A DNA stretch of 7,545 nt from a virus. Taxonomy: Duplodnaviria; Heunggongvirae; Uroviricota; Caudoviricetes. The stretch is taken from IMG/VR virus record IMGVR_UViG_2693429524_000008. One strand, written 5' to 3'. A program made the position numbers and the translations under genes. The stretch's first letter is position 1. Each line of letters opens with the position of its first letter. Below are positions 1 through 7,545 of this stretch, in pieces. The notes below the pieces were generated by a model. The model was not told the DNA's origin. It made no database searches and saw only the letters and a list, made by a program, of their open reading frames with translations.

Positions 1-111
1 CATACTCCTCCGGCAGAAGCAGAAAAAGCTTATTATGCTTCCATCGGAAACGATGATCTGGCAGCCTGAGTTCACAGATAAAACACTCTCCAGGAAACCC
101 GGGGCGGTTCA
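1..111 (+). mobile_element. 3' terminal fragment of an IS3-family insertion sequence (IS629/IS1203-like): transposase OrfB C-terminus (1..69) plus about 25 bp right terminal inverted repeat (87..111); element body lies outside the window to the left
   Basis: Seen: 1..111 is the exact reverse complement of 7435..7545. Frame +1 of 1..69 reads HTPPAEAEKAYYASIGNDDLAA-stop, which fits the conserved C-terminal tail of IS3-family DDE transposases. Read from the tip the end is 5'-TGAACCGCCCCGGGTTTCCTGGAGA, the TG...CA terminus typical of IS3-family inverted repeats. The IS629-like assignment is from memory, not a database hit. Confidence 0.6.
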
Positions 112-530
112 GGTTTTGGCGTGTATTCTGGAACAGGTTTCCCTTTTTTTCTGCATGCTTCTGCCCTGAGTCTCCAGTTTTCCTCATGACGCCGGTTCGT
201 CATTTTCTGCATTGCTGAATAAATTTTTGATTCAGTAATGTCTCTTAGTTGCATTCCTGCGAAATGTTGAAGCCAGAATCCGATCCGGCTTTTGTCATCG
301 TCCAGTGATTTTTTATGTGCTTTCTCTTCAAGCCACCTGACACACGCTTCCTCGAACGTTATATCAGGTATTTCACCAAGTTTGCTGACCCGCCATGCTT
401 CAGCCTTTAGCTTGTCATGGAGTTCTGTCGCCTGCCTTTTGTCCTTTGTTCCAAGAGACTGTTTAAATCTTTTACCGTTCGGCAATGTGAAACTGGCGTA
501 CCATATTTCACCTCTGCGGAAGAGTGACAT
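72..530 (-). pseudogene. int: Phage tyrosine integrase, N-terminal fragment only (integrase-derived part 112..530, about 139 codons; the last 13 codons and stop are read from IS sequence)
   Basis: ORF 72..530 (152 aa) begins [31 protein letters not shown]..., recalled as the N-terminus of DLP12/IntD-like lambdoid integrases (arm-binding and start of core-binding domain). The catalytic domain with the R/H-x-x-R/Y active-site residues is completely absent. Integrase-like sequence stops at the IS junction at 111/112. Position next to xis and orientation are lambdoid-typical. Confidence 0.75.
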
Positions 531-1424: not shown

Positions 1425-1951
1425 TTGCGTAACTCCGATAACTCGTTAAAGCGTTCCATAAACATCCCGTAGGCATGGCCCGGTGCCAGTGGAATCACGT
1501 TGAACATCTCTGTTGCCGGGATACCTTCCAGTACAGGCCAGAAAGAGCCATCATCAAGCCCGAGATCGCGGCGTTCGGTTGCCAGCATGATGAGATCGGC
1601 ATATTTCACGGGCGTACTCATAACTGGGGGTAACCCGTATTTCTCACGGATTACGGCGTCTATTTTTTCTTCCATTTGTTTATAGTCAGGAAGAAGGCGT
1701 TTCAGTGGTGCGGGAATGTCCTGGCAATACGCTTCTGTTGCATCATGCATTAACGCTTCAAAAGCAAATTCCTGCGGCACCAACTGGCTGCAAAGAACCG
1801 CATGTTGGGCGACGCTGTAGAAGTGCGAAAGATGACCGGCAAAGCGACAGATATTTGAAAGGGAAACCGCGATATCGTTAATATCGATGTCGTCTTTATT
1901 TATCCTGTCATAATAAAAATGCTTCCCGGAAAAAGTTTTAATAAATGACAT
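1415..1951 (-). CDS. yfdR: HD-domain 5'-deoxynucleotidase, YfdR-like (YfbR family), 178 aa
   Basis: Within ORF 1415..1978; start placed at ATG 1949..1951 (MSFIKTFSGKHFYYD...) because of a GGAGAA Shine-Dalgarno 6 nt upstream. HD-domain metal-binding signature visible (H..H in HLSHFYSVAQH and HD in EALMHDATEAY). Length and N-terminus match my recollection of the CPS-53 prophage protein YfdR. Confidence 0.7.
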   Translation of the reverse strand: MSFIKTFSGKHFYYDRINKDDIDINDIAVSLSNICRFAGHLSHFYSVAQHAVLCSQLVPQEFAFEALMHDATEAYCQDIPAPLKRLLPDYKQMEEKIDAVIREKYGLPPVMSTPVKYADLIMLATERRDLGLDDGSFWPVLEGIPATEMFNVIPLAPGHAYGMFMERFNELSELRKCA

Positions 1952-3379: not shown

Positions 3380-3468
3380 ACAAAACAGAGAAGAACACCT
3401 GCGGTGGCAGCCGCCCGGATGGATTGGGTTATGAGCCCGTCGTCCGGTGATGCTCTTCTCTGTTTTGT
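3380..3468. repeat. Long-range inverted repeat: 15-bp perfect arms (3380..3394 and 3454..3468) separated by 59 nt, in the untranslated leader upstream of the yfdP-like gene
   Basis: 3381..3394 CAAAACAGAGAAGA is the exact reverse complement of 3454..3467, with one further A/T pair at 3380/3468. Confidence 0.5.
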
Positions 3469-5016: not shown

Positions 5017-5580
5017 ATGAGGCTAACCGTGGGTAAGCATCACTGGAAAGTAGAAAAACAGCCTGAGTGGTACGTGAAAGCTGTCAGAAAAACTATCGCA
5101 GCGTTGCCGGGTGGTTACGCTGAAGCAGCTGACTGGCTGGATGTAACAGAGAACGCATTATTTAACCGCCTTCGTGCCTATGGCGATCAGATTTTCCCGC
5201 TGGGATGGGCAATGGTTTTACAGCGCGCGGCTGGCACTCACTACATTGCGGATGCTGTCGCACAGTCTGCTGGTGGGGTGTTCGTATCGCTTCCTGAAAT
5301 TGAGGAAGTAGAGAACGCCGATATAAACCAGCGCCTGCTGGAAGTCATTGAACAGATCGGCAGTTATTCAAAACAGATTCGTTCAGCAATTGAAGACGGT
5401 GTAGTGGAACCGAATGAGAAGACAGCAATTAACGACGAGCTGTACCTCTCAATTTCGAAGCTGCAGGAGCATGCAGCACTGGTCTACAAAATTTTTTGCA
5501 TTTCAGAAAGTAATGACGCCCGCGAGTGTGCAGCTCCGGGCGCCGTGGCGTGTCGTGACTGTGGAGAAACTAACGCATGA
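5017..5580 (+). CDS. CII-like phage regulatory protein (CP76-type), 187 aa; possible alternative GTG start at 5029 with a GAGG Shine-Dalgarno
   Basis: Position directly after cro; sequence features (WYVKAV..., [37 protein letters not shown]...) match my recollection of the enterobacterial phage CII/CP76 family. Its stop overlaps the next ATG as ATGA (5577..5580). Confidence 0.55.
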
Positions 5581-5915
5581 ACAGTTTAACAACACACTAC
5601 CGTCGCTCGCAACTGATTGCGCTTCCTGTACCGGGTGGAAAAGCGAAGGTGGAGTATTGCTATGCAGTAAATGTACCAGGTGACAGGGAAATTGTAACCC
5701 ACAGCTTTGCAGAGTGGGCTGTGGGTGATTTCAACCGGCAGAAGGAGACAGTCCTTTGCGACAAGTTAACCGCTGGTTCAAAGATCACTACGGAGTGCCC
5801 GTCAGAGTCATTCGTTGGGAGCCGGAAACACAACGGGTTATCTACCTCCGCGAAGGCTATGAGCATGAGTGCTTCAGCCCGCTCGAACAGTTTCGTCGTA
5901 AATTCAGGGAAGTAG
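5577..5915 (+). CDS. Hypothetical ORF, 112 aa; only the N-terminal half looks protein-like, and coding signal moves to another frame from about 5730 (possible frameshifted gene)
   Basis: ATG overlaps the CII-like stop (ATGA). The C-terminal 50 residues are Ser/Ala-rich and low-complexity, while an overlapping frame is clearly protein-like over 5729..5935. Confidence 0.3.
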
Positions 5916-5935
5916 AGGTCGGTCATGAGCACTAA
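5756..5935 (+). CDS. Small hypothetical protein, 59 codons, TTG start (absent from the ATG-only ORF track); alternatively the C-terminal part of a frameshifted gene that begins at 5577
   Basis: Protein-like translation [59 protein letters not shown]; strong Shine-Dalgarno AAGGAG (5742..5747) 8 nt upstream of TTG 5756; the stop (5933..5935) overlaps the next gene's start. Confidence 0.3.
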
Positions 5936-6263
5936 ATTAACCGGCTATGTATGGGATGGTTGCGCTGCATCAGGCATGAAATTATCCAGCGTGGCAATTA
6001 TGGCCCGCCTGGCTGATTTCAGTAATGACGAAGGTGTGTGCTGGCCATCAATTGAAACCATTGCCCGTCAGATTGGCGCGGGGATGAGTACCGTCAGAAC
6101 GGCTATCGCACGGCTGGAAGCAGAAGGCTGGTTAACGCGTAAGGCGCGTCGCCAGGGTAACCGCAATGCGTCGAATGTTTATCAGCTTAACGTTGCGAAG
6201 CTTCAGGCAGCGGCATTTTCTCAACTGTCAGATTCTGACCCGTCAAAATTTCTTACCTGCTGA
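5925..6263 (+). CDS. Winged-helix (HTH_36-like) replication-initiator-type N-terminal domain protein, 112 aa; possibly the 5' remnant of a longer O-like replication gene
   Basis: AGAGG Shine-Dalgarno 6 nt upstream of ATG 5925. Motif ...DEGVCWPSIETIARQIGAGMSTVRTAIARLEAEGWLTRKARRQGNRNASNVYQLN is typical of the HTH domain at the N-terminus of phage replication-initiation proteins. Followed by about 290 bp without a convincing ORF. Confidence 0.55.
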   Translation: MSTKLTGYVWDGCAASGMKLSSVAIMARLADFSNDEGVCWPSIETIARQIGAGMSTVRTAIARLEAEGWLTRKARRQGNRNASNVYQLNVAKLQAAAFSQLSDSDPSKFLTC

Positions 6264-6555
6264 CAAGTGGGTAACGCCACGCATGATGACGAGAACTACC
6301 GGAGTAAGCGAAGCCAGGTGCCAGTTAATACTGACTCAGTTAGTTCTGGCGGGTCTGGCGAAGGATAACGGCGGGTACGGGAATAAATTCAGACGCTGCC
6401 AGTAATGGCGGTTTCCTGCTGTGAAAATGGGCGGCTGGTGGGTGTTGGTAGCACCTGCCAGCCATTCGCTCATGCTTACTGGTCACAAGCGAACCACGGC
6501 CCACTGCTTTAGCGCAAAAGCAGAGTGAGCCTACCAGAGTTACGCTTACTGATCC

Positions 6556-7437
6556 ATGAAAAATACTGTAAAAATAAACAGTATTGATTTAATCAACGCT
6601 GATTGCCTGCATTTTATTCAGTCCCTGCCTGATGATTCCATTGACCTGATTGTTACCGATCCGCCTTACTTCAAGGTGAAACCTAACGGTTGGGACAATC
6701 AGTGGAAAGGGGACGAAGATTACCTTAAGTGGCTGGACCACTGTCTGGCCCAGTTCTGGCGGGTGTTAAAACCTGCCGGAAGCCTTTACCTGTTCTGTGG
6801 GCATCGCCTGGCATCTGATATTGAGATCATGATGCGTGAACGTTTCAACGTGCTTAACCATATCATCTGGGCGAAGCCGTCCGGACGTTGGAATGGGTGT
6901 AATAAAGAAAGTCTGCGCGCATATTTTCCTGCCACAGAGCGCGTTCTGTTTGCTGAACATTACCAGGGGCCATATCGCGGCAAAAGTGACGGCTATGCAG
7001 CAAAAGAAAGGGAACTCAAACAGCACATAATGGCACCGCTGATATCGTATTTCAGGGATGCTCGTGCCGAACTGGGTATAACGGCAAAACAAATTGCCGA
7101 AGCCACAGGTAAGAAAAATATGGTTTCCCACTGGTTTGGTGCCAGTCAGTGGCAGTTGCCGAATGAGGCTGACTATCGGAAGTTACAGGCACTGTTTTCC
7201 CGTATAGCGGCAGAGAAGTTTCAGGAACAACAACTGGAACAACCACACCACCAGCTGGTGGCATCTTATGATTCACTGAATCGCAAATATTCTGAATTGC
7301 TGGATGAGTTTAAATCTCTCCGGCGCTATTTCTCCGTATCAGTCTCCGTGCCTTATACCGATGTCTGGATGCATAAACCCGTTCAGTTCTACCCGGGTAA
7401 ACATCCGTGTGAGAAACCGGCGGATATGCTCAGGTGA
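6556..7437 (+). pseudogene. N6-adenine DNA methyltransferase (beta-class, phage Dam-like), 3'-truncated at the IS junction (methyltransferase-derived part 6556..7434)
   Basis: Catalytic motif IV, IVTDPPYF, near the N-terminus; the ORF ends ...YPGKHPCEKPADMLR-stop, six residues after the HP-x-x-KP motif that normally precedes the C-terminal AdoMet-binding motif (DPF-x-GSGTT type), which is missing. The TGA stop (7435..7437) is the first three bases of the IS terminal repeat. Confidence 0.75.
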
Positions 7438-7545
7438 ACCGCCCCGGGTTTCCTGGAGAGTGTTTTATCTGTGAACTCAGGCTGCCAGATCATCGTTTCC
7501 GATGGAAGCATAATAAGCTTTTTCTGCTTCTGCCGGAGGAGTATG
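7435..7545 (-). mobile_element. 3' terminal fragment of a second IS3-family (IS629/IS1203-like) copy in inverted orientation: right terminal inverted repeat starting TGAACC at 7435, transposase C-terminus on the minus strand (7477..7545)
   Basis: Exact reverse complement of 1..111; same reasoning as for the left-hand fragment. Confidence 0.6.

Follow-up and report, generated by a model that had tools for sequence, protein, structure and literature searches.

Probable out-of-frame overlap between ymfM and a nested DUF4222 gene in a lambdoid prophage

Between a CII-like regulatory gene and a replication gene of a lambdoid prophage, the coding signal of the DNA appears to change reading frame, raising the question of whether one gene is broken here or two genes share the same nucleotides. 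The locus lies at positions 5577-5935 of a 7,545-nucleotide (nt) stretch, hereafter the window, from IMG/VR virus record IMGVR_UViG_2693429524_000008 (Caudoviricetes). Coordinates refer to this window and features are on the plus strand unless stated otherwise. An ATG-initiated open reading frame (ORF) occupies 5577-5915. A preliminary description, made from the sequence without database searches, noted that a second frame is open from 5729, ends at 5935 and overlaps the start of the next gene, and all three statements were confirmed. The comparative evidence supports, at a rough probability of 0.85, two protein-coding genes that overlap out of frame by 160 nt, with neither an indel nor a ribosomal frameshift. 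The first is ymfM and the second, nested within its 3' half, encodes a DUF4222 protein.

The DUF4222 frame opens at 5729, directly after a TGA at 5726-5728, and TTG at 5756 is its sole canonical start codon. From this TTG the gene extends for 59 codons to a TAA stop at 5933-5935 (5756..5935), its last 11 nt overlapping the replication gene from the ATG at 5925. An AAGGAG Shine-Dalgarno sequence (5742..5747) is located 8 nt before the TTG. The 59-residue peptide scores 68 bits (E = 5e-19) with Pfam family PF13973, above the gathering threshold of 27, with residues 2-54 aligned to positions 3-53 of the 53-position profile. In an E. coli genome that is 100% identical over 5400-6100, the NCBI Prokaryotic Genome Annotation Pipeline (PGAP) places the coding sequence WP_001250272.1 on the same ORF at the same position. 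A total of 139 DUF4222 homologues were found, and among the 120 listed, which range from 43 to 102 amino acids (aa), all but one have a PF13973 match and no other domain. This is the profile of a small stand-alone protein of Enterobacterales phages and prophages, to which the present peptide conforms. Among the PHROG families, phrog_1343 (59 aa) corresponds to the DUF4222 frame.

The translation start of this gene is conserved as well. Both the TTG and the AAGGAG are invariant in 85/85 E. coli/Shigella-type loci. In Klebsiella, Raoultella, Citrobacter, Pantoea and phages mEp390 and LLS, an ATG stands at the aligned start with a purine-rich Shine-Dalgarno sequence before it, and in nearly all lineages a TTG, ATG or GTG is kept behind such a sequence. 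AlphaFold2 predicts a small beta-barrel with a helix for the protein, at a predicted local distance difference test score (pLDDT) of 83.7. Judged by its homologues, the TTG-initiated ORF is a real gene and a member of the DUF4222 family. The TTG-initiated 59-codon gene with a strong AAGGAG that was first proposed as one of two possibilities is thus borne out by the PF13973 match, the PGAP coding sequence and the aligned ATG of Klebsiella and Pantoea. A separate candidate, an RNA hairpin masking the DUF4222 start (5741-5757), was rejected. Its 6-bp GAAGGA/UCCUUU stem extends into the TTG by two bases, and a hairpin of this kind could tie DUF4222 initiation to ribosomes translating ymfM; the fold lacks significance (z = -1.4), and its sequence is not conserved in Klebsiella.

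The ymfM ORF (5577..5915) consists of 112 codons and a TAG stop and corresponds to b1148 of E. coli K-12, annotated as 'cell division inhibitor YmfM'. A GGAG Shine-Dalgarno-like motif (5563..5566) is found 10 nt 5' of its ATG. The ORF has the size and position expected of an orthologue, lying directly 3' of ymfL and overlapping its stop, such that the ymfL TGA (5578-5580) shares the sequence ATGA with the ymfM ATG. More than 1000 database members are 112-aa YmfM proteins at 95-97% identity, and YmfM matches phrog_1170 over positions 1-112 of 112. Conservation beyond this group is concentrated in an N-terminal module of ~58 aa, encoded by the portion of the ORF that overlaps no other gene (5577..5750). 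In tblastn searches, residues 1 to ~58 show 59-65% identity in Klebsiella and Citrobacter phages, and this half shows 38-44% in Providencia, Pantoea and Hafnia phages. A stand-alone gene of 59-65 aa, immediately 3' of the CII-like gene, encodes the module in Providencia, Morganella, Hafnia and Xenorhabdus, and again in the phiNP/Erwinia/Izhakiella/Scandinavium group. A 63-aa short form of ymfM constitutes phrog_20047. Among 52 E. coli-type haplotypes, the polymorphisms of 5577-5755 are mainly at third positions of the ATG frame, with 18 synonymous and seven nonsynonymous. By homology and polymorphism together, the N-terminal half of ymfM is a real coding region.

The AlphaFold2 pLDDT of the module is ~65-76, and the model of the whole YmfM protein (pLDDT 55) is too poor for a fold search. 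NCBIfam holds no model for YmfM or the DUF4222 protein, and a sequence search against solved structures found no match for either. A phmmer search of the N-terminal half against 1.84 billion representatives also gave matches to large repeat proteins (Listeria-Bacteroides repeat, DUF7507), built up from many weak segments and judged to be repeat-summing noise.

Within the overlap (5756..5915), residues ~60-112 of YmfM form a tail whose reading frame is +1 relative to the DUF4222 gene, and substitution patterns discriminate between the two frames. In the same haplotypes, 14 of the 15 polymorphisms at 5756-5912 leave the DUF4222 protein unchanged and alter an amino acid of the ymfM tail. A comparison of E. 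coli with Klebsiella gives 90% identity for the DUF4222 protein and 46% for the YmfM tail. Divergence at 4-fold degenerate sites is 0.59-0.69 in DUF4222 and 0.47-0.53 in the ymfM N-terminal half and the replication gene. As the DUF4222 sites diverge as fast as those of its neighbours, the tail adds no measurable constraint. These comparisons identify DUF4222 as the frame under amino-acid selection within the overlap. Together with the end-to-end DUF4222 match, the frame-specific substitutions place the reported switch in coding signal beyond chance. Each frame also has independent evidence of coding in its own set of homologues, its own PHROG family and its own substitution pattern. By these comparative criteria both frames are coding.

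The tail could nonetheless be a functional part of the protein, a disordered Ser/Ala/Thr-rich segment serving division inhibition or stability, with its frame held open for the protein's sake. Expression of the 112-codon ORF gives filamentation, the long form is retained in diverged lineages, and the frame is stop-free beyond chance, as detailed below; each of these fits such a role. Nonsynonymous change is freely accepted in the tail, however, and no extra constraint falls on DUF4222 synonymous sites. Residues 68-112 have an AlphaFold2 pLDDT below 40 and are predicted to be disordered, and tailless forms of ~60 aa are common at the same genomic position. What conservation the tail seems to have mirrors DUF4222 residues, the Trp-Glu of DUF4222 appearing as Gly-Ser in the tail. 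On balance a functional tail is somewhat unlikely.

Whether the tail frame contains stops was assessed across 194 loci, which reduce to 113 unique sequences of the DUF4222 core (46 codons). The null model randomised synonymous codons while the DUF4222 protein was kept fixed. In all 56 of the 56 unique sequences in which an ORF with the N-terminal module enters DUF4222, the +1 frame is free of stops over the 46 codons. The probability of an open frame is 0.09-0.29 per sequence; for the type found in the window it is 0.148, with 1.47 stops expected. When representatives of these run-in sequences below 80% nt identity are compared, with pairwise third-position identities of 0.24-0.55, 11/11 are open against 16 stops expected. 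The product of the 11 probabilities is 9e-10, or ~1e-4 if only about five lineages are independent, an estimate made here from the third-position identities. Among control DUF4222 genes that no ORF enters, 5/19 are open, with 33 stops seen and 40 expected (Fisher p = 9e-5). The alternative frame is thus open beyond the synonymous-codon expectation where ymfM runs in, in contrast to the controls.

Codon choice at the critical sites agrees with this result. At the stop-prone codon pairs (Leu/Val-Asn and two Val-Ile/Val), only CTC, CTT, GTC and GTT are used across lineages. In these phages Leu and Val are most often encoded by CTG and GTG, which never occur at these pairs. None of the lineages among the 113 unique cores has an N-half ORF that enters DUF4222 and then ends inside it, and the long form of ymfM keeps 112-117 aa across diverged lineages. 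This comparison of homologous loci shows that selection keeps the ymfM frame stop-free across the overlap.

It might still be held that only the ~58-aa module and DUF4222 matter and that the 53-codon extension is neutral read-through that lacks a stop by chance. The tail's amino acids are indeed unconstrained, a single-sequence probability of ~0.15 is not tiny, and PGAP does not annotate the long ORF. Such neutrality is improbable when every diverged run-in lineage is open, when controls carry stops at the expected rate, when truncation inside DUF4222 is absent, and when the safe synonymous codons interchange without ever giving a stop. The suggestion that the ATG ORF looks protein-like only in its first half is therefore right in one part. 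The tail is unconstrained in sequence and predicted to be disordered, and it is Ser/Ala-rich as first noted, with 12 Ser and five Ala in the last 53 residues by direct count. The other part does not hold, as the ORF stays open from end to end, at 112-117 aa, beyond chance. On this evidence the 112-codon ORF is not half-real, and the frames overlap rather than switch.

A single product of ~118 aa has also been considered, made by fusing the N-terminal module to DUF4222 through a programmed -1 ribosomal frameshift. The DUF4222 frame is -1 relative to ymfM, and the internal AAGGAG could in principle stimulate slippage, as internal Shine-Dalgarno sequences do in dnaX and prfB. Rare database proteins are fusions of exactly this kind. 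Against this, no X_XXY_YYZ heptamer is present in the permitted window, where both frames are open, in any of 13 lineages, and in some of them the DUF4222 frame opens just one codon ahead of its start. Initiation signals of its own, a start codon and a Shine-Dalgarno sequence, are conserved at DUF4222, and each module also occurs without the other. The search for homologues that join both halves in one frame, which had been proposed as a check, returned only five sporadic fusions (P0030, P0053, P0060, P0065 and P0090), each with a different junction. Most are from read-archive assemblies, four of the five are on a single contig, and they were treated as sporadic mutations or assembly errors. 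A frameshift is accordingly very improbable. A single gene broken by a 1-nt indel near 5730-5755, as a pseudogene or sequencing error, is suggested by a mid-ORF frame change that resembles an indel in raw sequence, but is scarcely credible given the identical indel-free two-frame layout in 85/85 E. coli/Shigella-type loci, the presence of the region in ~1900 E. coli genomes, the same layout at 54-80% nt identity in Klebsiella, Raoultella, Citrobacter and Pantoea, and the lack of any conserved single-frame homologue. The one-gene option of the preliminary description, whether by indel, pseudogene, sequencing error or required frameshift, is set aside on these grounds.

With two overlapping genes as the preferred reading, the position at which ymfM ends becomes of interest. 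Its TAG stop (5913-5915) runs into the replication gene's Shine-Dalgarno sequence, GAGG (5915-5918), the two together occupying 5913..5918, and lies 9 nt before the replication gene ATG. The next gene could be placed in 26 lineages, and in 24 of these the ymfM-like stop is near its ATG: 9 nt before in 16, 3 nt before in two, and with an 8-11 nt overlap in six. DUF4222 ends slightly further 3', inside the next gene. Short stand-alone N-half genes likewise end on the start codon of the next gene. As both the long and short forms end beside a downstream start, the constant feature is termination next to an initiation site. Conservation of openness in the overlap, with the amino acids unconstrained, suggests that selection acts on translation and not on the protein.

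These observations can be assembled into a proposed mechanism. The early-right operon would have the order cro/ymfT, ymfL, ymfM, DUF4222 and replication gene. Translation of ymfM from ATG 5577 would produce the conserved module of ~58 codons followed by an unconserved and probably disordered tail of ~53 codons. DUF4222 would be translated from TTG 5756 behind its own AAGGAG, giving a 59-aa beta-barrel protein that is predicted to be well folded. Ribosomes that started on ymfM would run on through the nested gene and terminate at TAG 5913-5915, on the ribosome-binding site of the replication gene. Translation of ymfM would in this way be coupled to that of the replication gene, with DUF4222 translated independently from its internal start. 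It is possible, at somewhat less than even odds, that the open frame serves translational coupling between ymfM and the replication gene.

Several points weigh against the overlap and its proposed role. The lineages compared are not fully independent, and the null model depends on a codon usage estimated from neighbouring phage ORFs. The lack of stop-creating changes within E. coli is not significant on its own: of 95 DUF4222-synonymous changes 10 would make a stop, and 14 DUF4222-synonymous changes were seen (P ~0.2), which leaves this comparison underpowered. An open +1 frame is also found in some DUF4222 genes that lack a recognisable N-half ORF on their 5' side (SfV/Stx type, YeP1 and Hafnia), so openness may be partly intrinsic or due to other ORFs running in. 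The argument for coupling is purely geometric, and a search of the available literature collection for ribosome-profiling studies mentioning ymfM found none.

Other arrangements of the same genes were observed in related prophages. In Morganella and Providencia prophages (L019-L021, L114-L122), the N-half gene and DUF4222 are placed in series, with the TGA and ATG shared as ATGA. The DUF4222 +1 frame has two to three stops in these series loci, which constitute a natural control without overlap. In SfV and Stx-converting phages (SfV, L108, 1052-1888; a Stx2a phage, L111, 1184-2017), ORFs of ~278 aa annotated as 'immunity region', Rha or antirepressor start 72-116 codons before their first recognised domain (Ash). 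The N-terminal extension in each is the +1 frame over an unannotated DUF4222 ORF. Either these start codons are annotated too far 5', or the overlap principle extends to these phages.

The overlap has consequences for the identity of SfiC. ymfM has been reported as the SOS-inducible division inhibitor SfiC, using pBAD24 expression of the cloned ORF and ymfM deletions (bioRxiv 10.1101/2020.11.19.390815). Inhibition of the FtsZ ring and SOS induction are likewise known from this literature for the K-12 ORF, and the 339-nt ORF was treated as encoding one product; clones from an earlier screen covered the ymfL-ymfN region. The cloned 339-nt ORF includes the DUF4222 Shine-Dalgarno sequence, the TTG and 53 of the 59 codons, and the published ymfM deletions also take out most of DUF4222. 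The nested ORF is not mentioned in the experimental papers on ymfM/SfiC or in those on the earlier screen. A full-text search for DUF4222 gave five papers, none of them about this locus as judged by titles and abstracts. Most papers that contain the term ymfM use it for something unrelated, and the overlap is not the subject of any of those ranked highest.

As the published clones and deletions alter both ORFs, either polypeptide may be the one active in the Z-ring phenotype. The phenotype could be wholly or partly due to the nested DUF4222 protein, with the long ymfM frame persisting mainly to deliver ribosomes to the replication gene start, although this is unlikely. Two single-base changes would separate the products cleanly and make the SfiC question directly testable. 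In silico, C5762T converts Gln3 of DUF4222 to a stop and keeps the ymfM Asp (GAC to GAT), while T5767A converts Leu64 of ymfM to a stop and keeps the DUF4222 Val (GTT to GTA).

Current annotation divides the locus between sources. The curated K-12 MG1655 record has the 339-nt ATG ORF as ymfM (b1148), with the other frame unannotated. PGAP calls the TTG ORF a "DUF4222 domain-containing protein" and omits ymfM, in the 100%-identical genome, in other K-12 assemblies and in a chicken isolate. The long ORF is annotated in phages mEp390, LLS and SKA5, in the last as "YmfM", and DUF4222 is annotated in Pantoea AH07 and Serratia BZS1. In PHROGs the two frames belong to separate families (phrog_1170 and the short-form phrog_20047 for ymfM; phrog_1343 for DUF4222). 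Both genes are therefore already catalogued, and their conserved overlap appears to be undescribed. The MG1655 record and PGAP are in conflict, and the comparative evidence favours annotating both genes. An antisense ORF of 90 codons lies opposite DUF4222 (5660-5932, minus strand; 1635-1922, minus strand, in L004). The GenBank entry for Klebsiella phage ST101-KPC2phi6.3 annotates this antisense ORF and neither plus-strand gene, which is probably a mis-annotation because of the plus-strand conservation pattern.

By sequence similarity, the window belongs to a lambdoid prophage of the e14/SfII/SfIV-like type and represents its immunity/replication region. A match to at least 80% of 5400-6100 is present in about 1900 complete E. 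coli genomes, most at 95-99% identity, and Shigella phages SfIV and SfII match the region at 98.6-98.9%. Upstream, ymfL (5017..5580) encodes a CII/CP76-like regulator (Pfam Phage_CP76, E = 5.5e-14; NCBIfam YmfL equivalog, 167 bits) and is annotated as ymfL in relatives. Downstream, 5925..6263 is the 5' part of a replication-initiator gene (HTH_36/DnaD_N-like; Pfam HTH_36, E = 7e-12) truncated by a deletion. The encoded protein has 112 aa in the window, against 313 aa for the intact protein at a related locus (L001). The deletion, at ~6249-6556, joins the gene to sequence lying 5' of a DNA methyltransferase gene; the match to most related prophages stops at 6249. An identical truncation junction is present in E. 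coli NZ_CP148401, where PGAP calls the gene partial. From this truncation, the prophage looks replication-defective.

The ends of the window are formed by a perfect 111-nt inverted repeat (1-111 and 7435-7545) that is 100% identical to the 3' end of IS629/IS1203 (IS3 family). As the ends match IS629 as an inverted repeat, the prophage segment is flanked by two inverted IS629 copies. One interrupts the integrase gene, of which a 152-aa N-terminal remnant remains (72-530, minus strand), and the other interrupts the DNA methyltransferase gene (6556-7437). The intergenic area between yfdP and ymfK contains a 25-nt imperfect inverted repeat (3380-3404 and 3444-3468; 84% complementary, 39-nt spacer). 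An Rfam scan found no RNA family anywhere in the window, and promoter and terminator scans found no plus-strand promoter-like or terminator-like site within 5577-5935.

The locus can be compared with several known systems. Relative to e14 ymfM (b1148), it has the same ORF at the same position after ymfL with 95-97% identity; it departs from the published account in that the second half of YmfM is an unconstrained frame over DUF4222. Relative to other PF13973 proteins, the nested gene has the same stand-alone size of ~60 aa and the same location just upstream of, and overlapping, a replication gene start. Overprinted gene pairs are familiar in phages, including lambda Rz/Rz1 and the overlapping genes of phiX174, and the younger partner is usually compositionally biased and disordered. 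As in these pairs, two proteins would be specified by one stretch of DNA, with one frame conserved and structured and the other biased and disordered. Unlike them, only the tail of one gene overlaps, stops are avoided without amino-acid constraint, and the end of the overlapping frame is tied to the start of a third gene. The locus offers a clean example of an unusual constraint, in which an overlapping frame is conserved only in its openness; in practice it bears on how the region is annotated and on what SfiC is. Phage operons also show stop-start translational coupling at junctions of the ATGA or TAATG type. The ATGA of ymfL and ymfM, the short N-half genes that end on the next start, and the end of ymfM on the replication gene Shine-Dalgarno sequence all resemble this arrangement. 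The resemblance here is geometric, and it differs from the usual case in that the ymfM ORF must cross a whole intervening gene in another frame before it reaches the start to which it would be coupled.

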